A DNA stretch of 49,885 nt from Minisyncoccota bacterium (GTDB lineage Bacteria > Patescibacteriota > Minisyncoccia > Moranbacterales > GCA-2747515). The stretch is from assembly GCA_020629675.1 (NCBI GenBank), contig JAHDCW010000001.1, positions 1 through 49,885 on the forward strand, written 5' to 3'. Positions 4,031 to 49,885 of this stretch are shown piece by piece (position 1 is the stretch's first letter; each line of letters starts with the position of its first letter). The notes under the pieces were generated by a model, which ran no database searches, was not told the DNA's origin, and saw only the letters and a program-made list of their open reading frames with translations. The position numbers and the translations under genes are program-made.

Positions 4031-7020
<2,990 letters not shown>

Positions 7021-35000: not shown

Positions 35001-38000
35001 ATCTGATACGTCACTGTATCTCCCACCGGTATTTCTGTGAACTCTACAAAATCTCCCGTATTCGGGTCCTGGACACGCTTATCGACAGTCAAGCCATAAA
35101 CATCTGCCTCCGCATCATCATCATCGTTTGGATTGTTACCTCCTGGCGTCTCACCTGTTACGCTAGCAGTATTTACAAGGTTATCACCGAGGGAGACCAT
35201 TTCACACGTATAGGTTTCACTTGCACCTGCTGCGAGAGTTGCAAATGTATTGTCACAATCAGGCACTTGCGCATCTGTTACTGTGACATTTGTGAGATCC
35301 ACGGAACCTATATTTGTCACAACAATCTGATACTGAGCTGTATCGCCCACTGGCACCTCCGCATAATCTACATATGTGTCTGTTGCTGGGTCATAGACGA
35401 GTTTTTGGATTTCAACACCGTATGTCTGCGCCTCTGCATCATCATCATCGTCTGGCGTGTTACCGTTTGGTGTCTCACCCTCTGCTTCGGCTGTGTTGGT
35501 AAATGGTACCAGCACCTCAGCATAGGTACATGTATATGTTACAGAGTCATCAAAAGGAAGTGATGCAATAGTCGTATTACACGCCGGAACAGTCGGATCA
35601 GTCACGCTAACATTTGTCAGATCTACAGTTCCTGTGTTGCGCACTGTGATCTGATATGTTGCTGGATCACCCACTGGGATCTCTGCCACCTCTACAAAGT
35701 TGCCGGTTGCAGGATCTTGAATCAACTTTTCAATTTCAATACCAAACGTCTCCACATTTGCATCATCACTATCATCAATCTCAGAACCAGACGCTGTCGT
35801 ACCAGTCGAAGTTGCCACATTGGTGTAAGCCCCATCAATTGCAACATCACACGTGGTAACGATTACCTCCCCAGGTTCAAATGGGTCGGCTCCGGATACA
35901 CCCAGTGCAGTCGTGTCCTGACTACATGAGGGAAATGTATCATCATCAAGCTCTAATTGCTCAAACGCTGTTGAACCAGTATTTGTAATAGTGAAACGAA
36001 AAGTTGCATCGTCATCAAGTGCAATCTCAGCCGCAGCTACATCAAGCCACTGATCAAGTAGCGGGTCATAAACTTCCTTGAGGATGCTAATGTCAAAGAG
36101 AGGTGCAGATGCATCATCATCGTCGTCAACTGGGTCCTGACCATCAGTAGGATCTCCTGTTACAGATGCGGTGTTAGGATTCACATCAGCTGTAATCGTC
36201 CCAGTACACGTGTATGTATAGATCTGCCCAGGATCGAGCACGCCATCGTTCGCACCATTTTGATCAGGTAGCGTGAGATCACAGTTTGGCAAATCAGGAT
36301 CCGTTACTGCGACATTATCAAGAGCTACCTCACCTGTGTTTGTCACCACCATCTGATAGGTAAGCTCTGTGCCAGGTGCCTGCTCCGGGATGGTATCCAC
36401 AAAATCTCCCGTGTCGGGATCTTGCACACGCTTATCGATATTTATGCTAACAGGAGGTTGATAGAAACCAAAGTCTACTGTGAGATTATCATTGGCATCA
36501 GCTGCATTTCTACTTATACCATTATCAACATCAATACTGTCAATTTCTTCTTGTAGAGGCTCCGTACCGATATCTAGAGTCAAAATACCAGACTCGTAGT
36601 CACCTGCACCCGTTGGAATAGCATCATGATTTTCTGTTTCATTATCATCATCATTTGGGTCTGTGCTTGGGTTAACTGATCCAACATATGTATAAAGCGC
36701 ACCACCCGGCAGGAAATTTGATGCCAGCACACGCACTCTATAGTCACCAGTAAATGCAATGTTCTGAAAAACATACCGACCATTACCATCTGTTGTTGCT
36801 GTATCTATAACTGCACCATCTGATTCGCGAACGAGCTCCAGGTCAACCCCAGCCAGCTTTGTATCCCCTGTATCAAATAGATCATTTCTATTTGCATCAA
36901 TAAACACGAGATCCCCAATCGATGCTGTGTACACCTCAGTGTACACCGGGTTTGATCGCGCTGGTAACGACAATATGCTTGGAGGCACTTTTACACTGTA
37001 GTCATTTGCATAGAAATCGCCAGGAGTATTAGCATCTGTGCTGATTGTCACTCGAAACGATTGCTTGCCAGCACCGGGCGTTGCCGGAACAGTTGACGCA
37101 TCTCCTGCAAATAAGTTTTCTCCATAAATTCGAAATGAAGTTGCATCAGATAATCCCGTTGGACATCCTGGTGATCCAAGTGCTGGTGCTCCATATGGAT
37201 CTAGAGCTGTGTCATCTGTGCACCACAAAGTACTTCCTCCTGGGATAGCATTAGTTGGATCTGATGAATCTGCTGTAATCGTAGCAGGATCAGCATTTGT
37301 GAGATAGAGCGCATATGGCTGATTACTAGGATCTGCCGTAATCGAAAGAATCTCAAATCCACCAGTAAAATCAGATGGCGTAGTACGCGTATCGCCATTA
37401 AATGGCAACGTATCAATTAAGTCATACCAATCTACATCATCATTAGCAATATTAGCAAATACAAGCTCATATGTAATGTCTTCATTAATGAATATGAGCG
37501 TGTCCTCTACGCGCTTAACTACTGCAAATGCTCCTAGCTGAATAATTACTATACCATCTGTGTCACTTCTCGCTGATTCTATTGCGGAATCCTCAGGGTC
37601 AGAAATGATCGCGGTATTTTCAATATTTGTACCATTCGCAGCATCAATTGGCGTTGTCGTAACAAAACTAAGCGTTGGCAAATTTGTACGATCGAGCTCA
37701 ACAACTCCCAGAACCCACTTTAGACCCAAAACATCAGACCCAAGCACTGGCTCTGTCGTCGTCCAATGACTTGCATCATCTCGGTCACATGGCGCCACAA
37801 CACAATACTCCACTAAATGAGTCGCTCCATTATCATCAATAAAGCTAGCAGGCATCGCAGAACCGGTTACGTAGGTCAGCGTTGAGTCAAGCACATCTAC
37901 TATTTGCACATCCTGAGCAGGATCACCCGGCTCACCGCTAATGGATGTAACAGTTGGCCTCAGATTCCATGTAACATCAGTTCCTCCTAAATGATTAGCT

Positions 38001-40270
38001 CCAGAACCAGGCTGCGCCTCAAGAGCCTCCTTTTCTATACGTACCTGAAGATTTGTCGCAAATAGACGGTCACCATTACCCACCCCAGAATGCGTCTCTG
38101 GATTATAATTTCGCGCACCCTGTCGGAGAATATCATCCTTATCAATAAAGCTATAGTAGGCTTGATTTGCTATCTCTGTACCCAAGGCAAGCCCCGGTTG
38201 AGCCTCATGCATCACATAAGCTTGAAAATATTTTCCAGCTGGCAAAATAGACCGTTCTTTCCACGGCAAATTTGGGTCGATATCAGGATGTTCGATTCTG
38301 ACACGAAATTTAGTAATATCATCCACAGCTACTCCAGCTGGCAATACCGCACTCAAATCGCCGAACTCAGGCACTTGAATCCAGTCGTCACCATCACTAT
38401 TACCATCACCATTAATATCAAGCGCATCACTGTCGTCACATGTACCATTTCTTTGAGCAGTCCAGCCAGCTGTATTAGCACCTCCCCAATTCCCGGGAGC
38501 CCCCCCATCAACTCCAGCAGCAACTTCCAAGACAACATTTGCGGAAGTTATATTTGAGTAAGTTTGGTCAACATTTGAACCTCCCACTCGTATGTAATGC
38601 ATGCGATTTGTCTGACTACTTGGCGAAAGGAAAAAGGTAGTCGGATCAATCTTATCACACATATACGCCTCGCGATTCGTGTATACGGATGTGTTATTCA
38701 AAGACACTAAGGTAGACCACTGACTTCCCGCCATAGCTTGACCATTACCAGCTCCGACACCAGTTGCATTTGTTGGGGCCGTCCAATACCTTGCATCTGG
38801 ATCATCATAGACCTCCCCAGGAACTCCCTTTCTATAATACTTACTCCATCCCGTGCCCCCACCGATTGCTGTAAATTCTAGCGTGTTTTTGCGATCACCT
38901 GTATTTTGATCATCCTCAGTTGGCTCTGTACCACTACCATAATTTGAAAGTCCATCCGTGTCAGTCGGATCAAAATTGGTTAGCGTGTCCGATGTTGGAT
39001 ATTCACCATCATCATCAGTTCCCTCTATACCATCAGGTCCAAGTTCAATCTGTTCAATCGGAATCCAAATTTCAAGCCAGCCAGAACTAAACCATGTTTG
39101 ATCCGCGGCAATAGCACCACCTGTCCAGTGAGTGTCCGGGAACTCATCTGGTCCCCAATCAGCGTTTGTGATTGTGACATCAATGTTAGTACCTGTTTGT
39201 GTGCAAGAATAATTACCGGAGTCACTTGTCGATCTGTACTGCCCCCATATATCCGCTTTACCCAATGGCACAGCACCATAATCAAGACTGTTTTGTCCTG
39301 CGTATCCACATCCGCCATGTGCACCCCAGTCATAAAGAAGTGATCCCGCTGGAAAACCGGAAATATCATCCGTAAAGGTGACAACATTTGGATCAATTAC
39401 TCCATTACCATTAGCATCATCTCCAGGATCGATGACACCATCTCCATTTTCATCATAATCTCCAAGAATAGATAATCCACGAGGATCCCCGCCGCCCGCA
39501 ACAATACCTGTCCTAATGCCGTAAACGACACCTATCTGATCCTCTCCTGTCGTATTTCGTGGATCAGATGCTGGTAGTACACGCGGTGTATTACGAGATG
39601 CACCATGTTTCCAAAGATCATAACGCGGCGCAGAAGCATTAGTGATAGGATCAGAAAAGAAAGGATCGGTTTCAACAACGATATCATCATTATCGTCAAG
39701 GTCACAGACCGTGTACTTAATGCCAAAGCGCGTCCCATTTGGAACCGACCCACTTGTTTTAACCTCAGCATTAATAAAGGCAGTGGTACCGTTAAGTACG
39801 GAACCAATACTACATGTCAATGTTTGATTGTCTGGCCCTGTATTACCTGAACAACCAGGAGGTAACTGCACAAACTGCACTCCCTCATGAGCGGGATTAC
39901 CCGTAGGATTGCCTGCAGCATCAAACTCCACCAACTCAGCTTTAAGAGTTAGGTTATTAGCATCCTCCCCATTGACGTTGTATTCAAGTTTAAACGTAGA
40001 GACATCATTTGACCGTGCATAATGCCCAAATCCTAAAAATCCATCCTCCTGCGCAGGCGAGCCATCCTCACCAGGATCCACCAAACCATCCCCATCGTAG
40101 TCCACAAAGGGTGCAGAACCAGAACTTACAATTGTCATATTTGAATCAACGGTTGGCGCAGCGTAAGCGATGTATGGGACATGTTGAAGCACAAAAGCAA
40201 AACACAAAAGCGACAACAAAAAAGATTTTGCTTTTTTTCGCACTTTTTGGGGGAAACAAAAAGAATGCAT
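32030..40270 (-). CDS. Giant (2746-aa) secreted adhesin-like protein with DUF11/TIGR01451-type repeats and SdrD-B-like domains
   Basis: Signal peptide LLSLLCFAFVLQHVPYIAYA. About 12 units of the form Y.I.VTNTG.V.L.NV.V.D...P.C....A.L..G.S.TYTC. Three GNR(V/I)F.D.N..G-type SdrD-B units. LAETG lies 13 aa from the C-terminus. Confidence 0.85.
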   Translation of the reverse strand: MHSFCFPQKVRKKAKSFLLSLLCFAFVLQHVPYIAYAAPTVDSNMTIVSSGSAPFVDYDGDGLVDPGEDGSPAQEDGFLGFGHYARSNDVSTFKLEYNVNGEDANNLTLKAELVEFDAAGNPTGNPAHEGVQFVQLPPGCSGNTGPDNQTLTCSIGSVLNGTTAFINAEVKTSGSVPNGTRFGIKYTVCDLDDNDDIVVETDPFFSDPITNASAPRYDLWKHGASRNTPRVLPASDPRNTTGEDQIGVVYGIRTGIVAGGGDPRGLSILGDYDENGDGVIDPGDDANGNGVIDPNVVTFTDDISGFPAGSLLYDWGAHGGCGYAGQNSLDYGAVPLGKADIWGQYRSTSDSGNYSCTQTGTNIDVTITNADWGPDEFPDTHWTGGAIAADQTWFSSGWLEIWIPIEQIELGPDGIEGTDDDGEYPTSDTLTNFDPTDTDGLSNYGSGTEPTEDDQNTGDRKNTLEFTAIGGGTGWSKYYRKGVPGEVYDDPDARYWTAPTNATGVGAGNGQAMAGSQWSTLVSLNNTSVYTNREAYMCDKIDPTTFFLSPSSQTNRMHYIRVGGSNVDQTYSNITSANVVLEVAAGVDGGAPGNWGGANTAGWTAQRNGTCDDSDALDINGDGNSDGDDWIQVPEFGDLSAVLPAGVAVDDITKFRVRIEHPDIDPNLPWKERSILPAGKYFQAYVMHEAQPGLALGTEIANQAYYSFIDKDDILRQGARNYNPETHSGVGNGDRLFATNLQVRIEKEALEAQPGSGANHLGGTDVTWNLRPTVTSISGEPGDPAQDVQIVDVLDSTLTYVTGSAMPASFIDDNGATHLVEYCVVAPCDRDDASHWTTTEPVLGSDVLGLKWVLGVVELDRTNLPTLSFVTTTPIDAANGTNIENTAIISDPEDSAIESARSDTDGIVIIQLGAFAVVKRVEDTLIFINEDITYELVFANIANDDVDWYDLIDTLPFNGDTRTTPSDFTGGFEILSITADPSNQPYALYLTNADPATITADSSDPTNAIPGGSTLWCTDDTALDPYGAPALGSPGCPTGLSDATSFRIYGENLFAGDASTVPATPGAGKQSFRVTISTDANTPGDFYANDYSVKVPPSILSLPARSNPVYTEVYTASIGDLVFIDANRNDLFDTGDTKLAGVDLELVRESDGAVIDTATTDGNGRYVFQNIAFTGDYRVRVLASNFLPGGALYTYVGSVNPSTDPNDDDNETENHDAIPTGAGDYESGILTLDIGTEPLQEEIDSIDVDNGISRNAADANDNLTVDFGFYQPPVSINIDKRVQDPDTGDFVDTIPEQAPGTELTYQMVVTNTGEVALDNVAVTDPDLPNCDLTLPDQNGANDGVLDPGQIYTYTCTGTITADVNPNTASVTGDPTDGQDPVDDDDDASAPLFDISILKEVYDPLLDQWLDVAAAEIALDDDATFRFTITNTGSTAFEQLELDDDTFPSCSQDTTALGVSGADPFEPGEVIVTTCDVAIDGAYTNVATSTGTTASGSEIDDSDDANVETFGIEIEKLIQDPATGNFVEVAEIPVGDPATYQITVRNTGTVDLTNVSVTDPTVPACNTTIASLPFDDSVTYTCTYAEVLVPFTNTAEAEGETPNGNTPDDDDDAEAQTYGVEIQKLVYDPATDTYVDYAEVPVGDTAQYQIVVTNIGSVDLTNVTVTDAQVPDCDNTFATLAAGASETYTCEMVSLGDNLVNTASVTGETPGGNNPNDDDDAEADVYGLTVDKRVQDPNTGDFVEFTEIPVGDTVTYQIIVTNTGTVDLTNVNVTDPLVPDCDNTFATITAGASETYTCTTTATDQTVVNTATATGETPNANEPEDDDDAEHQTYGIEIEKLVYDAGTDSYLDYTEIPTGEEVMFQIAVTNTGSVDLANVEVTDPNAPNCDNTFATLAAGATETYTCTLNPLDDAIVNIARATGETPEGNMPTDDDDAEAGVYGLAIEKLVQDPITGDFVEDTEIPVGDTVTYQIRVVNTGSIDLSNVEVVDPTVPACDNTFATLAAGAQEIYTCTTTATDQTVTNTVTATGETPGSNEPEDDDDAEHQTYGINIDKQVLNPVTGQFEEYTEIPDGDEVTFQIIVTNTGSVELTNVTVSDPQVPNCDTVIATLAAGASETYTCTLNPLEDALTNVADVTGETPDGNTPEDDDDAEADVYSLDIDKRVQDPDTGDFLEDVEIPVGDTVTYQIVVTNTGTVDLTNVNVVDPLVPDCDNTFAVIPVGGSETYTCTTIATDQTLTNIIAVTGMTPEDNEPEDDDDAEHQTYGVEIDKQVLDPATGEYGEMVVLPEGSAVTFQIIVRNTGSVELTDVVVSDPNAPNCDNTFASLAAGASETYTCTLESAPEDFINYARVTGETPDGHMPTDEDEAEVDTLSSSVNIVKTAGDAPDGDGYVHIGEPVIFTYTVTNTGESHLKDIVVNDDNGTPTDETDDFTVDAATCPALAGPVAPEEVVVCTVEIDVPIGLIHVNIAETTGTPTDEDGTDYENPTAPIDEDDAEVITGNGVVAGTLWIDVDGDDDFDSSEEPLANVDINIYFQTENGGEVLFTTTTDEDGNYYYDNLPYGDYRIVIDETDIPAELSQSFDVDQILDALTETTITEEDPASYDNDFAYNQFGQCAEGDEATIGNRIFEDMNCNGKYDPDIDLPLSGIEVKLKDREGNTIDRDTTSDGGKYELRTIGVGYYTVVIDDKDIEDMIISFDSGSSKNPDNRTQIHIEECGDDTTKVDFGLIKSECVLAETGVDMMCRI
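33155..35746 (-). repeat. Eight strictly in-phase 324-nt (108-codon) coding units alternating between two subtypes (648-nt higher-order period)
   Basis: Unit starts (F/Y codon) are at 35746, 35422 (inferred from the 324-nt spacing; this boundary was not located directly in the sequence), 35098, 34774, 34450, 34126, 33802 and 33478. Odd units end ...EPEDDDDAE(H/A)QT and carry TTTATDQTV. Even units end ...DDDDAEA.V and carry TLNPL.DA. Confidence 0.85.
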
Positions 40271-40400: not shown

Positions 40401-42047
40401 CTATTCGGATTGTGCTTTTTTTATCATGTCGCCTATACTCATTGCATTTTGAGAAGACTGTTTTGGTTTTTGTGCACGATTTTGTGACGGCACAACCTGT
40501 GCTTCACGCGGCGGCAGAGCATTACCCCGCACTTCCTCCTCCTTTGCAGCATTGCGCTGCACCTCTTTAAGACAATTCTTACAATACACAGGACGCTTAG
40601 GATCTGGCTTAAATGGCACTTGGATTGCGAGTCCACACATCGCACAGACTGCATCATACATCGTCTTTTGCACTTTCTCCACGAGCGTCGGCCCTGCATT
40701 GGCAGCTCTTTGCGGCGTCTGAGGACGTGCAGATGGTGCACCTGCTGTTGGCGGTGGACCAGTTGGCACACTTACACCGCTCCACGCGGCAATCGCCTCC
40801 TCAACTTTTTTCTGATCTTCAGCATAATGCTGACGAGAATATGTGATCACCCCCTCTGTGCTATCACCATACGGGACGTTGATCGGTGGAAGCGTCGTCG
40901 CGCTAAACGCATCACCTGAAATACCATCGATCATCAACTTAAGGTAAATATTATATTTTGGAAGATTAACGATATCGTTCATGGTAAATACCGGCTCAAA
41001 TTCTTTTTCCAGCGCCTCCGCATCACTAGCACCTACACGAAATGACACAATCGTTCCAACGTTACCAAAAATCGCATCACGCACCTCATCTTGCAGCTGT
41101 GCAATATACTGATTGGCAAGTGTCAGGCATAGCCGATACTTACGTGCCTCAGAGAGAATGCTTGCAAATGACTCTGTTGCAAAGTTTTGGAACTCATCTA
41201 CATACAAATAAAAATCCTTACGATCGTGCTCCTCTGTATCAACCCGACCCATCGCTGCCAGCTGAATCTTCGTGATCATCATCGCCCCCAAAAGAGCGGC
41301 ATTATCCTCACCGATATATCCCTTGGAGAGATTCATAACAAGGATCTTTTGATCATCCATCACCTCACGCACACTAAATGACGATCGTGATTGCCCTACA
41401 ATATTTCGAATCAAGGGGTTCGTCAAAAATTGCCCTACTTTGTTTTGGATTGGAGAGATTACCTCCTGCAAAACACGTTCGTTCCACCCAGAAAACTCAT
41501 CCACCCAAAAAGAACGCACCACAGGATCTTTCACGTGGTTAATTACTTCGATGCGGTACTTTTTATCAACAAGGATGCGCATAACGCCGAGCAACGTACT
41601 CTCGGGGTGCTCGAGAAGCGCCAAGATCGCATTACGCAAGATATACTCAAGCCGTGGACCCCACGAGTCAGCCCACAATTTTTGAAACACACCAATCAAA
41701 CCAGATGCCACAAGCGGTCGAAAGCGGGGTTCCACGCGCTCCATCACGTTAAAAGACATTGGAAAATCTTGATCTCCTGGATTGAAATAAATAACATCCT
41801 TGATTCGCTCGGGTGGAATCATAGAGATCAACTTCTCTGCAGTGTCACCATGCGGATCCACAAAACACATCCCGTGACCATTCCGGATGTCTTGAATCGC
41901 TAGATTCTCAAGCATATTCGTCTTCCCCATACCCGTCTTACCAATCACATACATGTGACGACGACGATCATCTGTCTTGATACCAAAAGGGACATTTTGA
42001 TTACGGAAATTGGTCTGCGCAAATGGTGTGATAATTTCTGGTTGCAT
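40401..42047 (-). CDS. Soluble VirD4/TraD/TrwB-like (T4SS coupling-protein-type) P-loop ATPase with C-terminal CxxC-x17-CxxC zinc ribbon
   Basis: Walker A GKTGMGKT (aa 36-43), Walker B FYLYVDEFQNF, and a TraG-D_C-like EARKYRLCLTLANQYIAQL. No N-terminal TM. CAMC-17 aa-CKNC at 40572-40646. Confidence 0.7.
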   Translation of the reverse strand: MQPEIITPFAQTNFRNQNVPFGIKTDDRRRHMYVIGKTGMGKTNMLENLAIQDIRNGHGMCFVDPHGDTAEKLISMIPPERIKDVIYFNPGDQDFPMSFNVMERVEPRFRPLVASGLIGVFQKLWADSWGPRLEYILRNAILALLEHPESTLLGVMRILVDKKYRIEVINHVKDPVVRSFWVDEFSGWNERVLQEVISPIQNKVGQFLTNPLIRNIVGQSRSSFSVREVMDDQKILVMNLSKGYIGEDNAALLGAMMITKIQLAAMGRVDTEEHDRKDFYLYVDEFQNFATESFASILSEARKYRLCLTLANQYIAQLQDEVRDAIFGNVGTIVSFRVGASDAEALEKEFEPVFTMNDIVNLPKYNIYLKLMIDGISGDAFSATTLPPINVPYGDSTEGVITYSRQHYAEDQKKVEEAIAAWSGVSVPTGPPPTAGAPSARPQTPQRAANAGPTLVEKVQKTMYDAVCAMCGLAIQVPFKPDPKRPVYCKNCLKEVQRNAAKEEEVRGNALPPREAQVVPSQNRAQKPKQSSQNAMSIGDMIKKAQSE

Positions 42048-42100
42048 AAATCAGTATTTAGATCGTTATGTATTTTTGTTTTTATTTGTGGCGCTTATGT

Positions 42101-43375
42101 TTATTGGTTCATAAATGGGAGATTGGCCGGTGCACCACCGTGCTGTGCATCAACAAATTTAACACCTGGCGATACCACAGACATATCTGGCAGATGAAAT
42201 ACCGTTGCTAACTCTTCTGACGAAAAATGAAACATCGTCCCAGAGGGGTCGCGGTCACGATAGCGATCCATAATCTGGCGCATACGACGTGTCCCAATCT
42301 CATCCTTCATGACATAGTCAGCATCCGTCTTTGTATCACCATCGGGCGCAATAGAATTGTGCAGTCCGTCGTTAAACTGCTTGATCGTTCCACCGTTCAT
42401 CGCACTTACATTCGCCTTGGTAAAACCATCACGATTACCAATGATCACAACGCGCATCTTAACAGTAAACATCGCTTTGGATAGATTTTCTTCGAGAGCT
42501 GTCAAAGTTTGCTTTTCTCCCGGCGTCAGTCGAAACTCGAGAGGTTGCTCATCATCACCGCCGCCGCCACCATCCCAGGCGGAATACTCAACCGGCTTAC
42601 TCCACGCAACGAAAACACCAAAAAAAACATCCTTCAGATCTTTCCAAAAACGACTGCCTTCTGGTGTAGTTTTACGTCCTAAAAATTTGTCAATCTCCGC
42701 TCGTCCTACTGTCTCTGCCCAAGCTGATTTTTCTGGTTGAATAATGTACTGCAGCCACATATTTTGTCCTGGCGGCAGTGTACTCATGTGCTCAATCAGA
42801 GTATTAAGCGGGTCAAGCATTTTACCAGTAATATCCTCTTCAAATTTTTTATACGTTCTAATAGGATGTGCATCATGTTTAAGGAGTTTATAATCCACAG
42901 CCCACATCGTATAGTCCTTGTTTGGCATCACTTTTGGCACCATCTTTTGGGCGTAGTCATCCGCCTCAACGATCTGCGCATTAGGATAAGCTGCATACAG
43001 TGCTGACTCCACAAAATCGCGAAATCCGCCCGGCATTCGCACATAAAAATGCACCTCACCCCCACGAGATTCAATCTCAAACGAAAACAGTGCATTCATT
43101 TTTCCATCTGCATACTTGTCGATCACATTAGGGTTTGAATCAACGGCTGTAAGAGTATTAAAAAAGATCTCCATATTCTTAGGGCTCGCCTCGATGTTAC
43201 GCGGCGGTACAATTTCCAACAAAATATCATTTTGCTTCATGAAATGCTGCCCGACTGCGTGACCATCCCACAAGACACGAAAAGCGTAATACAACAAAAT
43301 CGGCAACACGATAAACCATGATGCCAGAAATGCGGTCGAAAAACCTGTTACCACCAATAAAAGATCCTCAAGCAT
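42101..43375 (-). CDS. Membrane-anchored protein of unknown function, partner of the VirD4-like ATPase
   Basis: 424 aa with an N-terminal hydrophobic segment LLLVVTGFSTAFLASWFIVLPILLYYAF, then a soluble domain (ILLEIVPPRN...FSFEIESRGGEVHFYVRMP...SSEELATVFHLP). GAGGA SD. 53-nt gap to the ATPase gene with no terminator. Confidence 0.55.
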   Translation of the reverse strand: MLEDLLLVVTGFSTAFLASWFIVLPILLYYAFRVLWDGHAVGQHFMKQNDILLEIVPPRNIEASPKNMEIFFNTLTAVDSNPNVIDKYADGKMNALFSFEIESRGGEVHFYVRMPGGFRDFVESALYAAYPNAQIVEADDYAQKMVPKVMPNKDYTMWAVDYKLLKHDAHPIRTYKKFEEDITGKMLDPLNTLIEHMSTLPPGQNMWLQYIIQPEKSAWAETVGRAEIDKFLGRKTTPEGSRFWKDLKDVFFGVFVAWSKPVEYSAWDGGGGGDDEQPLEFRLTPGEKQTLTALEENLSKAMFTVKMRVVIIGNRDGFTKANVSAMNGGTIKQFNDGLHNSIAPDGDTKTDADYVMKDEIGTRRMRQIMDRYRDRDPSGTMFHFSSEELATVFHLPDMSVVSPGVKFVDAQHGGAPANLPFMNQ

Positions 43376-43428
43376 AAAACATTCCTCAGAATGACGCTCG
43401 GATAAAAATTACAATAAAGTAGCGTACT

Positions 43429-44445
43429 CTACTCTAAAGTATACGTACCTCCATTTTTTTGTGCAACTGTATTGAGATTTATCTTGACTGTTGCTGGCTT
43501 TACCTCGCGCAGTGCGCATACCTTATCCACAACCTCAGATGCTGTAAGCGGCTGGTTAGATTCTTTGAGTACATGGATCACGAGATCACGTACCTTGCCA
43601 TGAGTATACCCACGTGATGCTAGTCCATATGTCCCTCGTCCGACGAGCACGAAAGCCTCGTCTTTGATAAGCTCGTTGTGAACTGTCTGCGGATGTGTCT
43701 TGCGACCACCTTTTCCAAGCTTTCGATCATCAATTGCAGATGCGATTTCACGAAAGTGAAGTGGTGACTCTGTATGAAGTAAGATCAAGTACACTTTATC
43801 ACGAATGCTGCGCGGCTTTACGGTGCTCCATTCAGTCTTACCCCACTTGTCATAAATATTTTGTGAAATTTCCTGAGATGCATGAAGGTGCTCTTTCATA
43901 TGCAAACCATCAACTGCGGGATGTTTTTTTGCAAGAACCGCATACAGATCATCCTCTTCGACGATTTCATTTTTATCTGAAAGATAAGCATGCGCATCAG
44001 CATGCACATTAGACCACTGCTTAAAATCAAAATCATGCACATGCACAGACTGCTCTAGTGGATGCTCCTTATGACGATCGATGAGCATTACAGAATCAGA
44101 AGCAGACACAAGAAAACGCATTGTACCTATACTTGCACCATGCATATCATAGAATTTTTTGAAGAGTCGATCAGCTCGAATAATACCTCCCTTAGAGCGA
44201 ATGTGTTGCTCAACAGCATCTTGTGCTGCATGATAATCAGCATCTTTTTTCTCATGAACCTGCTGAAGGCTTGTACGCACAATCTGACGAACACGCTCTC
44301 TTGTAATGTCATGCTGCTTACCAATCGCATCGAGAGTATATGGTGCATCATACCCAATGCCAAAGCGGCGCTCTACACAATCTCGTGCTCGCTCTGATAG
44401 TTGCGAAAGTGCTTCTGCACAAATGTGATCAAAGGTTTTTTTCAT
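43429..44445 (-). CDS. DNA-binding protein: sigma-70 region-4-like HTH (N-terminal) + HARE-HTH-like domain (C-terminal)
   Basis: LSERARDCVERRFGIGYDAPYTLDAIGKQHDITRERVRQIV is sigma region 4. LHFREIASAI...VHNELIKDEAFVLVGRGTYGL is HARE-HTH-like. I prefer ATG 44445 over the track's TTG 44484. Confidence 0.55.
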   Translation of the reverse strand: MKKTFDHICAEALSQLSERARDCVERRFGIGYDAPYTLDAIGKQHDITRERVRQIVRTSLQQVHEKKDADYHAAQDAVEQHIRSKGGIIRADRLFKKFYDMHGASIGTMRFLVSASDSVMLIDRHKEHPLEQSVHVHDFDFKQWSNVHADAHAYLSDKNEIVEEDDLYAVLAKKHPAVDGLHMKEHLHASQEISQNIYDKWGKTEWSTVKPRSIRDKVYLILLHTESPLHFREIASAIDDRKLGKGGRKTHPQTVHNELIKDEAFVLVGRGTYGLASRGYTHGKVRDLVIHVLKESNQPLTASEVVDKVCALREVKPATVKINLNTVAQKNGGTYTLE

Positions 44446-44474
44446 AATGAAGTTCAAAAAATTGTTGTGTGAGT

Positions 44475-44503
44475 AGGATAACAAAAATATTTCTAAATGT
44501 CAA
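44475..44503 (-). promoter_or_regulatory. Sigma70-type promoter of the sigma4/HARE gene
   Basis: TTGACA (44503-44498), 17-nt spacer, TATCCT (44480-44475). Confidence 0.5.
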
Positions 44504-44537
44504 CATTGTGTCATCAAATCAACTACTAAAATAATAA

Positions 44538-45608
44538 TTAGAGCATTAGCGCCTCAGGTGCTTCAAAGGCTATAGCCTCATCTTGATCGATAAGCATTGC
44601 CTTTACCATGATACGGCGCAGAGCTGTACCTAGCGGCCAACACGTCGTAAGTGTGAGAACTTCGTCATTGGAACTCGCGAAAATATCAGGCTCATCAGGC
44701 TCCACCTCACGCTGCACATCTACCGCATAGGTATAGCGCACCTCCTGACCTTTTGCAGTACGTGCTGCTACGATAATTTTGTCGCCAGGCACGACATCGA
44801 TAAGGTCTTTAAAGATCGTATTAAAGTTACCTCCCGCCCACGCATAATTACTGCTATGACCAGCAATATATGAGTTTCCGATTTCACCTGGCATCACTGT
44901 CCCCTGCCCAGGATAGAGAATTACTCCTCGCTCGAGATCTTTTTGAATCTGACTTTCGTCAACTGTATCAGATAAAATGACAGGTGCATCGACACCAATC
45001 TTATCAATCATGATTTTATAGGTGAGTCGCGCATCACCAGATGCAGTCGGATCATATCCATCACGTACCTCTTTTTCATCATCGTAACCATCGCCATCTG
45101 TATCTGCAACCAGAGGGTGTGTCCCAAATAAAAATTCCTCTTTATTTGTGAGGCCGTCACCATCTAAATCACCATCAGTCGTCGTCTCTGCACCAAGCTG
45201 ATACTCTTGCTCCCAGTTGTCTGAGAGACCATTGTTATTTGCGTCGAGCCGACCTTTACCAGTTGGTGAGTACCCATTATTTACCTCAGTACCATCTAGA
45301 TATCCGTCGCCATCTGTATCTGCCACTATCGGATGTGTGTTGTGAATATACTCCTCTATCAGACTAAGTCCATCCTCATCTGCGTCCACCTGCGCATCCT
45401 CCTCTGATGAAACACTAATCTGATAACGATCAAGCCAAAAAGGCGAAATTCCATGATGTTTTTCATCAAGCATCTCCATTAATTCTTGCGATGTTTTTTC
45501 ACGCGGTAAAATTGTATCTACAAGTAAACCAAAACGACCTGTAAAAATCACAAAAGCCACAAAAAACACGACCACAAAAACGATAACGATAGAAAAAAAT
45601 GATTTCAT
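44538..45608 (-). CDS. Sortase (transpeptidase) with N-terminal TM and thrombospondin-type-3-like Ca-binding repeats
   Basis: Catalytic motifs YIAGHSS (His), VLTLTTCWP (TLxTC Cys) and ALRRIMV (Arg). Four DxDxDG-type repeats (DADEDGLSLIEE, DTDGDGYLDGTE, DLDGDGLTNKEE, DTDGDGYDDEKE). I prefer ATG 45608 (MKSFFSIVIVFVVVFF). Confidence 0.8.
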   Translation of the reverse strand: MKSFFSIVIVFVVVFFVAFVIFTGRFGLLVDTILPREKTSQELMEMLDEKHHGISPFWLDRYQISVSSEEDAQVDADEDGLSLIEEYIHNTHPIVADTDGDGYLDGTEVNNGYSPTGKGRLDANNNGLSDNWEQEYQLGAETTTDGDLDGDGLTNKEEFLFGTHPLVADTDGDGYDDEKEVRDGYDPTASGDARLTYKIMIDKIGVDAPVILSDTVDESQIQKDLERGVILYPGQGTVMPGEIGNSYIAGHSSNYAWAGGNFNTIFKDLIDVVPGDKIIVAARTAKGQEVRYTYAVDVQREVEPDEPDIFASSNDEVLTLTTCWPLGTALRRIMVKAMLIDQDEAIAFEAPEALML

Positions 45609-45639
45609 AGGTTTTTTCTGTTTATTACTCCAACAATAC

Positions 45640-45668
45640 AATTTATCACAATAAAATGTTTTTGTCAA
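45640..45668 (-). promoter_or_regulatory. Sigma70-type promoter of the sortase gene
   Basis: TTGACA (45668-45663), 17-nt spacer, TAAATT (45645-45640). It directly abuts the upstream terminator. Confidence 0.45.
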
Positions 45669-45670
45669 CA

Positions 45671-45696
45671 AAAACCCGCGCCTAAAGCACGGGTTT
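45671..45696 (-). terminator. Rho-independent terminator after the 802-aa surface protein gene
   Basis: AAACCCG (45672-45678) pairs with CGGGUUU (45690-45696), followed on the minus strand by a U-run (UUUUUGUUG). Confidence 0.6.
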
Positions 45697-45722
45697 CTAC
45701 TACATCGAACATTCGTAGATGA

Positions 45723-48131
45723 TTAGTGATCAAATCGAATCACAGATCTTTCTTGACCACCTTTCATCTGACGACGTTGGTACATCCACGCTGCACCAGA
45801 GGCAATCATAACTGCTGCACCTCCTGCGAGTGGTCCTGCACCAGTTTTTGGCGATACAGGACGATGCGTAGACTGATGTGCTGGACAGTAATATCCGAAG
45901 TCAGCACGATCTTCTTCTTCGCCTTCATCAAGGCGAACTTTGTTCATATGATCTAATTTTCCATCACGATCATACGTCTGGTAACACCCCTTATCGAGAG
46001 TTTCCACAGCTACGATCACACGATATGTATCTTCACAAAGATCATCAAAATCATATTTACCGCTACTGCTTGTACGTGTCTTATCCACGTTGTCACCGTA
46101 TTGAAGCTTGAGCTTTACGTTGTCCAAGCCTGGCTCACCAGCGTCACGGACACCATTACGGTTAAGATCGTTCCATACGCGGTTACCGATCTCACCATCA
46201 CATTTGTCATCATCGTCATCATTATCGTCGTCCTCCTCTGGAGTCACGATGCGACACTGATTTGAACATGAATCACCGTCATTACGATTACCATCATCAC
46301 ATTGCTCGTTTCCTTCCTTGATACCGTTACCGCAGACAGGATCTACGATACGACGTTCCACACTACACTGATTGCTACAACCATCACCATTGATCGTGTT
46401 ACCATCATCACACTGCTCCCCTGTTTCAATTTTTCCATTTCCACAGATAGGCGCTTGTGGCTCTGACTTTACATCTACTGATGTCGGATCATCATCAATC
46501 ACATCATCCTGACCGTCAACTGGTGTCGCTGTAACGCTCGCAACAACATCAAATGCATCTGTTATATTTTCTGCAGTACACGTATACACAACTTCTTCAC
46601 CAACAACGAGACTTGCAATCGTTTTTTTACAATTCTTAGCGTTGTCTACTGTAATACGAACATCTGTGAGATCTACTTCACCGTTATTTTTAACAACAAC
46701 CTCAAATGTAGCCGTCCCACCGTCTTCTACAGTTTGCTGATCATCTTTGTCGATTGCGTCACGAATCTCAATCATCACGCTTGGCGCGCCTGGGATCGTC
46801 ACAATAATCTCCGTTGGATCCTCATCTGTAACATGACTACCACCATTTGCAGGTTCACTGACAACACGTGCTACGTTTGTAAAACTGTCATCTACGTTTG
46901 TTGCAGTACAGGTATATGTTTCAGTCTCTCCACCTCTTAGCGTACCAATGTTTTTGTTACATGCAGGCGTCTTTTCATCTGTTACAACAACATCATTAAG
47001 AGTAACCTGTCCTGTGTTGCGTACGACGATTTCAAATACTGCATCCTCACCTTTTTTGATATTTTGGACATCATCCCTGTCAGATGCGTCACGTTTGATG
47101 ATGTTAATACCAGCTTCTTCAACAACACACTGATTGCTACAACCATCACCGCTTGCAGAGTTGCCATCATCACATTGCTCACCTTGGTCGAGTTCACCAT
47201 CACCGCAAACAGGATCTTTTGGAGCTACAATAATCTCCGTTGGATCCTCATCTGTAACATGACTACCACCATTTGCAGGTTCACTGACAACACGTGCTAC
47301 GTTTGTAAAACTGTCATCTACGTTTGTTGCAGTACAGGTATATGTTTCAGTCTCTCCACCTCTTAGCGTACCAATGTTTTTGTTACATGCAGGCGTCTTT
47401 TCATCTGTTACAACAACATCATTAAGAGTAACCTGTCCTGTGTTGCGTACGACGATTTCAAATACTGCATCCTCACCTTTTTTGATATTTTGGACATCAT
47501 CCCTGTCAGATGCGTCACGTTTGATGATGTTAATACCAGCTTCTTCAACAACACACTGATTGCTACAACCATCACCGCTTGCAGAGTTGCCATCATCACA
47601 TTGCTCACCTTGGTCGACGTGTCCATTTCCACAGACAGCAACAGGACGAAGCATCATACACACGGGATTCAAACTATTAGCACTGATACCACCTTGTTTT
47701 GGGATCGTATGCGTGATAGCGATCTTATTGATGTTTTGATTTAGTGCCAAATTATTATTGACCACACCGCTCCACGTCGCATTTGCTACGTAATCCTCAA
47801 GGTCATCTGAACTATTTGATGTACCTACGAGTGAGCCACCATTAAAAAATTTAACAAAATACTGCTCATTTGGCTGATTAGTATTTACGCGTGAACCATA
47901 TTGATCATTGCTTTGCAGCATGATCTCATAGTTTCCACGTGGAATTGACACTGCGCGCTCCACAGCATTTGGGTCACGATCAGAGTAGATCCGAAGTGAT
48001 CCACCAAAATTAATTACGATATCACCTTGACCTGGGCTCAAATGACATACTGAACCCGAAGCGTGCACTGAGGGAGCCCCAGCGGCAACAGCGATAAAAA
48101 CAAAAGCAGCAACTGCAAATATCTTTCTCAT
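45723..48131 (-). CDS. Sortase-anchored surface protein (SPKTG sorting signal) with Myxococcus-type Cys-rich repeats, DUF11-like and SdrD-B-like domains
   Basis: Signal peptide [24 protein letters not shown]. Four CG(N/D)G....GEQCDDGN...GD(G/S)CSNQC units. The C-terminus is SPKTG (45840-45854), then the hydrophobic [20 protein letters not shown], then the basic QRRQMKG. Confidence 0.85.
46801..47617 (-). repeat. Perfect tandem duplication inside the 802-aa gene: two identical 391-nt copies with a 426-nt (142-codon) period
   Basis: 46801-47191 equals 47227-47617 by direct reading. Flanking bases differ (46800 c vs 47226 t; 47192 g vs 47618 c). The ORF track shows identical antisense peptides at 46948-47133 and 47374-47559. 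Confidence 0.9.
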
Positions 48132-48202
48132 ATATATTATTTAGTAGTTAAAACAAAATTAACTGCCAACTACCAATTCAGTTGATAATTAGTTGACTAG
48201 AT

Positions 48203-48231
48203 AATGTAACACAATTCAATATATGTGTCAA
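48203..48231 (-). promoter_or_regulatory. Sigma70-type promoter of the 802-aa surface protein gene
   Basis: TTGACA (48231-48226), 17-nt spacer, TACATT (48208-48203). Confidence 0.55.
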
Positions 48232-48247
48232 CCATCTATTTGACATA

Positions 48248-48276
48248 TTGACAAAATATTACTTAAATGATAATTT
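48248..48276 (+). promoter_or_regulatory. Sigma70-type (extended -10) promoter of the plus-strand gene
   Basis: TTGACA (48248-48253), 17-nt spacer ending in TGa, TAATTT (48271-48276). A second TTGACA lies at 48240-48245. Confidence 0.5.
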
Positions 48277-48323
48277 TTTGAAAGTTTACCCCTAATTTAA
48301 AAATCAAAAAGGATAGTGATCGC

Positions 48324-48737
48324 ATGAAGTCAAAGAAACTTAAAAGAAAGCTCTTAAGTCAATTTTCCAACTTTTTAAAAGATACAGAAGCTTCAAAACT
48401 CAAAGAATCGACAGTAATCCTCACTATTGATCGCCAAGGTAAATCTGAGTTTACCGTAGCTAAAAAAATAACAACAATCGCAACTCTATTCAGTGAAGAG
48501 TCATTGTCTGAGCTGGGTGAACAATACGCCAGCCGTGCAGTCTTATACAAAAGAGCACTAAAAAGCATAGCAAATGAATTTCCTGAGAAATATAATTTGC
48601 CAGTTGTGGACCTTGTCACATTACTAAATGAAAAAAATGATCCTTTTAAGACTCTTAAATCAGGTAAATTTCATGGTATTGGAAACATAACAGCAAAAGC
48701 AATTATTGATCTTTTGGAAGCAAAGAGGCTTTTATAA
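48324..48737 (+). CDS. Hypothetical Lys-rich protein with C-terminal helix-hairpin-helix-like motif
   Basis: The only plus-strand gene, and visibly AT-rich. AAGGA SD. The C-terminal HGIGNITAKAIIDLL resembles an HhH (GIG..A..I) motif. Confidence 0.5.
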   Translation: MKSKKLKRKLLSQFSNFLKDTEASKLKESTVILTIDRQGKSEFTVAKKITTIATLFSEESLSELGEQYASRAVLYKRALKSIANEFPEKYNLPVVDLVTLLNEKNDPFKTLKSGKFHGIGNITAKAIIDLLEAKRLL

Positions 48738-48751
48738 TAAGATCATGCAGC

Positions 48752-48790
48752 AAAAAATCGCCACCATAAAACTATGGTAGCGATTTTCTT
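48752..48790. terminator. Shared terminator hairpin between the convergent genes (better formed on the minus strand)
   Basis: A 14-bp stem pairs 48755-48768 with 48773-48786. The single odd pair is U.G on the minus strand and C.A on the plus strand. T-runs follow on both sides. Confidence 0.7.
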
Positions 48791-48805
48791 TTAGCAACTT
48801 GTCTT

Positions 48806-49822
48806 TTAAGCAGAGATTGTCGTGCGTACTGATGCGACCATATCGACGAGTCGATTAGCATAGCCCCATTCGTTGTCATACCATGCGAGCACTTTGACGA
48901 GATTACCACCTACTACTTTGGTAAATGGGAGATCTACTACACTCGAAAAAGCTGATCCGATAAAGTCTGATGATACCAGCGGCTCATCACTCACACCGAG
49001 GATGCCTTTGTATGTCGTAGCTGCTGCCTCACGAAGTGCATCATTAACCTGTTCAACCGTGACATCTTGCTTGAGGACAAAAACTGTATCTGTGAGAGAT
49101 ACATTAATTGTCGGGACGCGTACCGCCATTCCATCAAATTTTCCCTTGAGGTCAGGAATTACCTTGGTCGTCGCAATTGCTGCACCGGTCGTCGTCGGGA
49201 TCATATTTTGTGCAGCTGCGCGCCCTTTGCGAAGATCTTTAGCAGGACCATCTTGGAGATTTTGAGTTGAGGTGTAGGAGTGAATCGTAGTCAGCATCGC
49301 TTTTTCTACACCAAATACTTCATGCATGGTTTGCACTACAGGCGCTGCGCAATTGGTGGTACATGAGCCATTTGATACCACGTGATGCGACTCAGGCGTC
49401 GGCTCACTCACACCGACCACATGGGTCGAGATGTTTTCATCATCACCCTTGGCTGGTGCACTGATGATTACACGTTTTGCCCCAGCATCTACGTGCGCGT
49501 ATGCTGCGCCATCTTTTACAAACCTCCCCGTGCATTCGAGAACCACATCAATATCATGTTCTTGCCACGGCAGCTCGAGCGGCTTTGGCTCCGCGAATAC
49601 TGGTATTTTCTCTCCGCCTACCACCAACGCATGATCCATCACTTGAATGTCCTTGTCGTACGTCCTAAAAACACTATCATACTTAAGCATATGGCCGAGC
49701 GTCTTGGTGTCTGCAAGGTCATTAATGGCAACCACCTGCATATCATCTCGAGCGGAGATGATCCTAAAGGCAGCTCGTCCAATTCGTCCAAATCCATTGA
49801 TTGCGACACGTGTTTTGACCAT
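48806..49822 (-). CDS. gap: Type I glyceraldehyde-3-phosphate dehydrogenase
   Basis: VAINGFGRIGR, SNGSCTTNCAAP (catalytic Cys) and WYDNEWGYANR. I prefer ATG 49822 (MVKTRVAINGFGRIGR). Confidence 0.93.
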   Translation of the reverse strand: MVKTRVAINGFGRIGRAAFRIISARDDMQVVAINDLADTKTLGHMLKYDSVFRTYDKDIQVMDHALVVGGEKIPVFAEPKPLELPWQEHDIDVVLECTGRFVKDGAAYAHVDAGAKRVIISAPAKGDDENISTHVVGVSEPTPESHHVVSNGSCTTNCAAPVVQTMHEVFGVEKAMLTTIHSYTSTQNLQDGPAKDLRKGRAAAQNMIPTTTGAAIATTKVIPDLKGKFDGMAVRVPTINVSLTDTVFVLKQDVTVEQVNDALREAAATTYKGILGVSDEPLVSSDFIGSAFSSVVDLPFTKVVGGNLVKVLAWYDNEWGYANRLVDMVASVRTTISA

Positions 49823-49885
49823 AGTTTTTTGTTTTAGAAATTTAGTCGAGATTATTGATTTTTTTATAGATCGCATAAAGCTCCA

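Follow-up and report, generated by a model that had tools for sequence, protein, structure and literature searches.

A probable dedicated sortase-substrate cassette of Patescibacteria with an SPKTG sorting signal and a putative calcium-loop stalk

SrtA of Staphylococcus aureus is a membrane-anchored housekeeping transpeptidase of class A, the activity of which is stimulated by Ca2+ and the single Ca2+ site of which lies inside the catalytic domain, at the beta3/beta4 and beta6/beta7 loops. A second described sortase, SrtB of Clostridioides difficile, cleaves the pentapeptides SPKTG, PPKTG, SPSTG and SPQTG between Thr and Gly (PMC4155245). Here we consider a locus that shares elements with both, in a stretch of 49,885 nucleotides of a Minisyncoccota bacterium (assembly GCA_020629675.1, contig JAHDCW010000001.1, positions 1 to 49,885), hereafter the window. 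The locus consists of a gene for an 802-amino-acid (aa) secreted repeat protein that ends in a sorting signal with the pentapeptide SPKTG (45723..48131), directly followed by a gene for a 356-aa sortase (44538..45608), which carries an acidic linker between its membrane anchor and its catalytic domain. Both genes, and all features given below, lie on the minus strand unless stated otherwise. We consider it likely that the two genes form a dedicated sortase-substrate cassette and that their host is a member of the Patescibacteria (Moranbacteria/Parcubacteria-type). In this cassette the sortase would cleave SPKTG and the linker, a stalk of putative Ca2+ loops, would act as a spacer.

The closest solved relatives of the window sortase, by sequence profile as well as by fold, are found in classes D and E, namely SrtD of Clostridium perfringens (4d70) and SrtE of Thermobifida fusca (9iok). 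They have the His-Cys-Arg triad, the TLxTC motif and an N-terminal membrane anchor in common with it, and some members of the family to which the window sortase belongs have been named 'class E sortase' by NCBI. Nevertheless, the window sortase scores only 43-44.5 bits against class models with cut-offs of 140-165, the motif that accompanies the family is [L/V/T/A/S]PxTG and not LAxTG or LPxTA, and a linker of 100-225 aa with Ca2+-type loops is absent in classes D and E. The difference from S. aureus SrtA is of another kind, as the putative Ca2+ sites of the window sortase are five loops that lie in the linker, outside the catalytic domain. We know of no studied sortase for which such a modular Ca-loop stalk has been described. 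Sortases as such are common in bacteria of the candidate phyla radiation (CPR; PMC6744442, PMC4736985, PMC5220378). A search of the literature on sortases of CPR, Patescibacteria and Parcubacteria and on thrombospondin type 3 (TSP3) repeats returned general mentions of CPR sortases only, and neither the TSP3-sortase fusion, nor the stalk, nor the motif was found there.

The sequence-only reading of this DNA had taken the two genes for an enzyme and its substrate, and it is the recurrence of the pair in other genomes that bears this out. We surveyed 79 related loci, including that of the window, with flanks of +/-10 kb each (1.36 Mb in all). In 58 of them (the window and 57 of the 78 others with a sortase open reading frame, ORF) a gene on the same strand that ends in xPx[T/S]G, a transmembrane segment and a basic tail is located directly upstream of the sortase gene. 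Because the same gene pair recurs in so many loci the pairing, as judged from gene order, is not a matter of chance. Moreover, of the 72 ORFs in these flanks that have a sorting-signal-like end, 67 are found at most 1.5 kb away from the sortase gene. The remaining five are apparently spurious and comprise an FtsW-type motif, a tail of the PEP-CTERM type and tiny ORFs. One metagenome-assembled genome (MAG; JBAZUU01) encodes two of these sortases (L044 and L075), each beside a substrate of its own, with LPRTG and VPATG, respectively. In the window itself, only one of the four large secreted or membrane repeat proteins carries a complete sorting signal, which is the one encoded beside the sortase. 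It is this clustering of signal-bearing ORFs at the sortase gene, together with the two paralogues that have their own substrates and the sole complete signal next to the enzyme, that argues for a dedicated cassette.

The fusion of linker and sortase is by no means restricted to the window. The architecture was found in at least 261 species-representative genomes (one genome per species was scanned), and the best 80 of these 261 were all Patescibacteria or MAGs with doubtful labels. Nearly all of the best 120 of 2,895 homologues carried both PF04203 and PF18884, and the homologues listed go by the database names 'sortase', 'class E sortase' and 'LPXTG-site transpeptidase family protein' and come from Moranbacteria, Parcubacteria and Patescibacteria. 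The window sortase shows the hallmarks of these stalked sortases, which are a transmembrane anchor, a GISxxWLxRY element, TSP3 loop pairs and the sequence TLTTCWPLGT, and it aligns over its full length to 25 members. The linker-sortase fusion thus appears to be the standard architecture of a large uncharacterised family of Patescibacteria, of which the window sortase is, by all sequence features compared, an ordinary member. The fusion had earlier been called unusual, which holds in comparison with the textbook sortases of Firmicutes and does not hold within the family. Several MAGs with a stalked sortase of the Patescibacteria type are labelled Bdellovibrionales, Micavibrio or Pseudobdellovibrionaceae (L003, L006, L010, L022, L025, L030 and others); these labels are probably taxonomic mislabels. 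Some loci of the survey have two signal genes: in L057, L063 and L074 these are arranged in tandem upstream of the sortase gene, and in L077 one is found upstream and one downstream. In addition, an ORF of L020 (1280-1894), a contig labelled Moraniibacteriota, ends in PVPEPATMLLFATGLAGLAAVGRRRRKQ, which resembles a PEP-CTERM sorting signal.

The reading frame of the sortase starts at the ATG at 45608 (MKSFF...). The mechanically called ORF begins at TTG 45671 and was corrected: the database protein (P0001, 356 aa) and all homologues begin at ATG 45608, which is two residues ahead of the membrane anchor. The latter spans aa 3-24 (45537..45602) according to the sequence, and AlphaFold2 predicts a helix at aa 2-23. 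The catalytic domain, delimited by Pfam, alignment, and profile and fold matches, comprises aa 195-340 (44589..45026). Over aa 220-360 (ORF numbering) it matches the Pfam family Sortase (PF04203, MEROPS C60), with a score of 73.8 bits where the cut-off is 26.6. The catalytic residues His251 (44856-44858), Cys323 (44640-44642, within LTLTTCWPLGT) and Arg332 (44613-44615) are invariant across 26 aligned sequences that are 38-74% identical to the window sortase, so that the earlier recognition of the His, the TLxTC Cys and the Arg proved correct. The AlphaFold2 model, built on the same 26-sequence alignment, has a mean predicted local distance difference test score (pLDDT) of 85.9 and a predicted template modelling score (pTM) of 0.69, and it matches solved sortases in Foldseek with E ~1e-11 and probability 1.00.

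The class of the enzyme is a different matter. The best match by sequence profile in the PDB is C. perfringens SrtD (4d70, E = 1.3e-12), followed by SrtA of B. anthracis, class C enzymes and T. fusca SrtE (9iok, E = 1.9e-08), and class A structures match with E-values of only 1e-6 to 1e-2; in Foldseek the classes D, E, A and C are nearly level. Classification with class-specific hidden Markov models, a check proposed in the sequence-only reading, left all matching class models below their cut-offs. The class E model (NF033747) gave 44.5 bits against 160, and the class E substrate motif LAxTG is not found among the 58 adjacent substrates, all of which have Pro at position 2. For class D the scores were 43.0 bits against 165 (NF033746) and 44.4 bits against 140 (NF058671), and for class C 41.1 bits against 160 (NF033745), where the sortase also lacks the DP[FWY] lid and the substrate lacks YPK. 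Class B models were absent among the NCBIfam matches at E <= 0.01, and neither the 60 best PDB profile matches (E to ~1) nor the best 50 in Foldseek contained a class B chain. A class B identity was rejected on this basis, within the ranges searched. Assignment to any of the described classes was abandoned, because the NCBIfam class models that matched did so far under their cut-offs and the PDB and Foldseek searches rank D, E, A and C almost equally. Judging from these comparisons, the window sortase is a genuine sortase of a lineage that fits no described class and that has no specific relation to SrtB of C. difficile.

The linker comprises 128 residues between anchor and catalytic domain (aa 63-190), with 34 Asp and Glu against five Lys and Arg, in keeping with the earlier description of some 130 aa of DxDxDG repeats at this position. 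Its acidic part (45069..45386), recognised by PF18884, alignment and the AlphaFold2 model, contains five 12-residue loops of the type DxDxDGxxxxxE (DADEDGLSLIEE, DTDGDGYLDGTE, DANNNGLSDNWE, DLDGDGLTNKEE and DTDGDGYDDEKE), one of which is an Asn variant. They are laid out as two TSP3 pairs, aa 75-86/97-108 and aa 147-158/169-180, with the Asn-type loop at aa 122-133 in between. In line with this loop pattern, the match to the bacterial TSP3 repeat (TSP3_bac, PF18884) reaches 35.6 bits against a cut-off of 25. The Asp and Glu residues of the loops are invariant or nearly so across the aligned family, and structure prediction of the repeat region, likewise a proposed check, gave pLDDT values of ~82-95. 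With E ~2-3e-4, the profile of the family picks up lanmodulin, an EF-hand protein and, in the C2-II toxin, the domain that binds Ca2+. Motif resemblance and these weak profile matches thus make it well motivated to suppose that the linker binds Ca2+.

The length of the linker points to what it may do. Among related sortases it takes quantised values of ~105, 162 and 225 aa, in agreement with a whole number of loop-pair modules. In addition, a search of 1.84 billion representative proteins showed that the two-pair TSP3 module of the linker is present in 10 to 35 tandem copies in giant proteins of 1,000-7,400 aa (P0123-P0271). In fact, a profile search of the whole library with the full sortase alignment was dominated by such giant TSP3-module proteins and yielded no size for the sortase family. 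The TSP3-pair module therefore looks like a generic extracellular structural unit. Since the length of the linker is modular and the same module is found in tandem in giant proteins, a spacer fits better than a partner-specific site, and we infer that the stalk is mainly a stiffened spacer that would set the distance of the active site from the membrane. A similar use is made of the module by CglD/MtsD of Myxococcus and by OmpA-type proteins (PF18884), which belong to the same DxDxDG...DTDGDG family and of which CglD and MtsD are partially matched; there too it is an extracytoplasmic, acidic, repeated structural unit. The difference is that the window sortase has the module inserted between its membrane anchor and its catalytic domain.

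The substrate gene was delineated from the ORF list and from domain searches in Pfam and NCBIfam. Its product begins with a signal-peptide-like sequence of the pattern MRK, hydrophobic stretch, VHA (aa 1-24, 48060..48131), as judged by inspection, and continues with four Cys-rich acidic repeats (DUF4215 / TIGR02232), three DUF7507/DUF11 modules and one SdrD B-like domain (aa 647-746, 45894..46193; PF17210, 65.1 bits), which is closed by the motif ADFGY ahead of the sorting signal. The latter is complete, as had been recognised before, and consists of the pentapeptide SPKTG (aa 760-764, 45840..45854, from the translation), a hydrophobic segment of 20 uncharged residues (aa 765-784, 45780..45839) and a basic tail (QRRQMK..., aa 785-802, 45726..45779), preceded at the other end of the protein by the putative signal peptide. 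Ordinary sorting signals end at the basic residues. The tail of the window substrate includes an extension, [ST][VI]I.F[DE], that is conserved in its clade: beyond the basic cluster the substrates of the SPxTG clade (window 45726-45746, L001 6594-7838, L002 23-1327, L011 8201-9526 and P0122) show an extra element, with the sequences SVIRFDH, ATIIRF, GTIISFE, ATIIPMD and KTIIDFTK.

The overall design of the substrate is reminiscent of the Sdr family of S. aureus, the LPXTG adhesins with SdrD B domains. Both have SdrD B-like sequence before the signal, a repetitive modular ectodomain and a recent duplication of a module. Unlike the Sdr proteins, the window substrate has DUF4215 and DUF7507/DUF11 modules in its N-terminal part instead of an A domain and SD repeats, it carries SPKTG, and its tail has the extra [ST][VI]I.F[DE] element. 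The duplication in the window is a perfect tandem repeat of 426 bp (46801..47617, 1.9 copies, 100% matches), which repeats a module of 142 aa made up of a Cys-rich repeat and DUF7507 (the offset of the protein repeat is likewise 142 aa). The presence of two copies is backed by depth alone, which is ~1.6-1.8x that of the flanks in the assembler contigs of two source runs; these data are short assembler contigs, which collapse repeats. One source contig contains the single-copy joint of the module, which may represent a collapsed repeat or a true length variant. The source sample is an apparently algae-associated metagenome of low coverage (depth 3-12). Strain variants in the source runs (window 45749, 45763, 45809 and 45852) comprise a synonymous change in Ser760 and the replacements Met775Val, Lys790Arg and Arg795Gly; SPKTG is unaltered, and the changes in the sorting signal are conservative except for Arg795Gly in the tail.

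The pentapeptide varies from clade to clade. Position 1 is L or V in 38 of the 58 adjacent substrates, T or A in 16 and S in four. The commoner forms are LPATG (25), TPATG (9), LPASG (4), APATG, LPKTG and VPATG (3 each), and APVTG and TPVTG (2 each), whereas LPTTG, LPRTG, LPVTG, SPKTG (the window), SPDTG (L001), SPQTG (L002) and SPETG (L011) occur once. Each of the four SPxTG substrates accompanies one of the four most similar sortases, the catalytic domains of which show 60-61% identity. SPxTG is thus, within the set of sequences compared, confined to the closest relatives of the window and one state of a clade-variable [L/V/T/A/S]PxTG motif; the motif had been presented as unusual, which applies relative to the textbook Firmicutes sortases and not to this family. 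A search with the last 156 aa of the substrate returned only two homologues, with APRTG and SPVTG, too few for statistics. An SdrD B-like domain ending in (K)ADFGY precedes the motif in all [S/T/A]PxTG substrates, and KADFGY combined with [STA]PxTG was found in 18 related substrates; the substrates of the L/V type are mostly small (116-250 aa). In 55 of 58 cases a substrate has the same class of motif as the one that goes with the nearest-neighbour sortase, as compared with a mean of 29 and a maximum of 45 in shuffles, which shows that enzyme and signal are inherited together. Several alignment columns split the enzymes of the L/V type from those of the S/T/A type, for example 321 (two before the catalytic Cys), 197, 210 and 300. 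These columns are fully confounded by phylogeny and therefore support no claim on specificity.

The pentapeptide of the window is identical to one of those of C. difficile SrtB, with Ser replacing Leu at position 1, and in that respect the earlier identification of SPKTG as a motif cleaved by SrtB (PMC4155245) is correct. A link to an SrtB-type system fell away, as neither the class models, nor the PDB profile search, nor the fold search supported class B. SrtB is a class B enzyme without a TSP3 linker and with several scattered substrates, whereas the window sortase lies outside class B and has the linker. Because the two enzymes are unrelated at the level of class, the likeness of the substrates is convergent and constitutes a parallel in motif only.

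The following course of events would be in line with the above. The substrate would be exported via its N-terminal signal peptide, probably by Sec, and its C-terminal end, with the hydrophobic segment and the basic tail, would keep it in the membrane. The neighbouring membrane-anchored sortase would then, by analogy, cleave SPKTG between Thr and Gly and form a thioester on Cys323, after which an amine in the envelope, most likely that of a peptidoglycan precursor, would take over the substrate, which would become a covalently anchored adhesin-like surface protein. The acidic Ca-loop stalk would fix how far the catalytic domain stands from the membrane, with a length that varies between clades in whole modules. 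Position 1 of the pentapeptide would have drifted from Leu to Thr, Ala or Ser in the sub-lineage with SdrD B-like substrates; SPxTG is the form seen in the clade of the window.

Several observations weigh against the picture of a dedicated cassette with a spacer-like stalk. The adjacency is not universal, because 21 of the 79 loci have no adjacent substrate, among them the clade that is next closest to that of the window. The window represents 50 kb of a genome of ~1 Mb, and other sortases or distant substrates are possible elsewhere. The agreement between the class of the motif and the clade of the sortase is confounded by shared descent, so that it does not prove co-adaptation. As to the stalk, the linker taken as a single sequence matches calmodulins and PDB entries only marginally (E = 0.02-0.3), the proposed binding of Ca2+ follows from a resemblance in motif, and the geometry of the stalk is presumed. 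In general, the family is known from sequences and models, and the acceptor in the envelope of Patescibacteria is a supposed one. Part of this would be accommodated by a housekeeping sortase that anchors many proteins throughout the genome, for which the adjacency to one substrate would be incidental or partial. CPR genomes with many surface proteins that carry sortase motifs have been reported (PMC5220378), and the giant neighbour of the substrate in the window ends in an LAETG-like remnant, both of which would fit such a role. We nevertheless consider it rather unlikely, given the proximity of nearly all signal-like ORFs (67 of 72) to a sortase gene, the two paralogues with separate substrates in one MAG and the three other large secreted repeat proteins of the window that are devoid of a complete signal.

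The stalk could also be a Ca2+-dependent switch or tether, which would dock on the wall, on an S-layer or on the Cys-rich acidic repeats that the substrate carries, or else would gate the activity by external Ca2+. The residues of the loops are conserved more strictly than much of the catalytic domain, the repeats are accompanied by the conserved GISxxWLxRY element and by a conserved D..WE loop, and the pTM of 0.69 points to domains that are arranged in a defined way. However, giant proteins use the same module as a generic unit in tandem, and its copy number varies among the sortases, both of which fit better with a structural spacer; a switch or tether therefore seems doubtful to us. Much less probable still is a pilin-polymerising, class C-like sortase with the adjacent protein as pilus subunit. 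Pilus sortases typically show such an operon-like adjacency, the Foldseek scores of class C structures are level with those of the others, and the substrates in other clades are small proteins (116-250 aa). These points are outweighed by the score against the class C model (41 bits versus a cut-off of 160), by the lack of a DP[FWY] lid motif in the sortase, by the YPK motif, which is absent in the window substrate and present in just one of the 58 related substrates, and by the fact that most loci have just one substrate gene. Finally, we regard it as extremely improbable that SPKTG and the tail are fortuitous or that the pair is non-functional. The source is a metagenome of low coverage and the perfect 426-bp duplication is possibly an artefact of assembly, but the pair, the position of the motif and the catalytic residues are conserved over dozens of species-level genomes, the strain variants keep SPKTG and both ORFs are intact. 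We thus prefer the dedicated cassette with a spacer-like stalk.

One may go further, though with little confidence, and suppose that the stalked sortases form a distinct, undescribed class. In that case the Ca2+-loaded stalk could serve as a ruler or as a Ca2+ switch, with a modular length that is matched to the envelope and the type of substrate; the shift at position 1 from Leu to Thr, Ala or Ser could be independent of C. difficile and its class B enzyme and have co-evolved with residues near the catalytic Cys; and the cytoplasmic [ST][VI]I.F[DE] tail could be an extra element for recognition or retention.

Most Patescibacteria are episymbionts that have not been cultured, and it is probably through their surface proteins that they attach to the host. 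Little is understood of the way in which these proteins are anchored in the envelope. The locus offers a clean and conserved cassette of one enzyme and one substrate that is approachable in vitro with short peptides. Moreover, the family constitutes a natural series for the specificity of sortases at position 1 (Leu, Val, Thr, Ala and Ser), including a putative SPxTG-recognising enzyme outside class B, and it might yield tools for sortase ligation with an altered motif preference. The stalk, if proven to be a spacer or a switch, could inform on the positioning of catalytic domains in the wall. The current understanding is not overturned by any of this; rather, a known mechanism is extended into an under-studied lineage.

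Signals for transcription were found ahead of both genes. The substrate gene is preceded by the promoter-like site TTGACA-17-TACATT (48203..48231), with a TG before the -10 box, a match of 10/12 to the consensus and a distance of 72 nt to the ATG at 48131. The corresponding site of the sortase gene, TTGACA-17-TAAATT (45640..45668), also has the TG and a match of 10/12 and lies 32 nt upstream of ATG 45608; it falls outside the gene because translation starts at this ATG and not at TTG 45671. The gap of 114 nt between the two genes contains a hairpin that resembles an intrinsic terminator (45673..45695), with a GC-rich stem of 10 bp, AAACCCGUGC-UUU-AGGCGCGGGUUU, and a U run behind it. It was spotted by eye and then confirmed by folding (-19.9 kcal/mol, z = -4.3, with 0/200 shuffles folding as well), after an automated terminator scan had missed it. 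The T run of the terminator abuts the -35 box of the sortase site. The total number of promoter-like sites is not above that of shuffled sequence (20 versus 15.2 +/- 4.0). Their positions do give support, as three of the four best sites on the minus strand sit in the three short intergenic gaps. A separate promoter for each gene, of the TTGACA type as claimed in the sequence-only reading, is thus a reasonable supposition at the level of consensus matches.

The genes around the pair are in part conserved as well. The order in the window (40401-49876) is GAPDH, substrate, sortase, a protein with a sigma-70 region 4 and a HARE-HTH domain, a membrane protein of 424 aa and a VirD4/TrwB-like ATPase, the last of which ends in a treble-clef zinc finger. 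The closest relatives (L001, L002 and L011) have the same gene order, and distant relatives keep only the pair of substrate and sortase.

Surface repeat proteins take up about one third of the window. The four large secreted or membrane repeat proteins (5185-7020, 17309-21088, 32030-40270 and 45723-48131) share the domains DUF11/DUF7507, the DUF4215 Cys-rich repeats and SdrD_B. The giant among them (2746 aa, 32030-40270) has 11 DUF7507 stretches besides SdrD_B and SpaA-like domains, and it ends in VDFGLIKSECV-LAETG-VDMMCRI. The pentapeptide is at the spacing after DFG[YL] that is seen in true substrates, and a hydrophobic segment and a basic tail are missing; it may be a decayed sorting signal. 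Read-through of the stop codon of this gene was considered and rejected, as a second in-frame stop follows four codons on and the next ORF is in a different frame.

All sizeable genes of the window are on the minus strand, with the exception of an ORF of 137 aa (48324-48737). The GC skew is negative across the window (1-49885), with a cumulative fall to -4.4, and together with the strand of the genes this fits a location in one replichore with a strong gene-strand bias.

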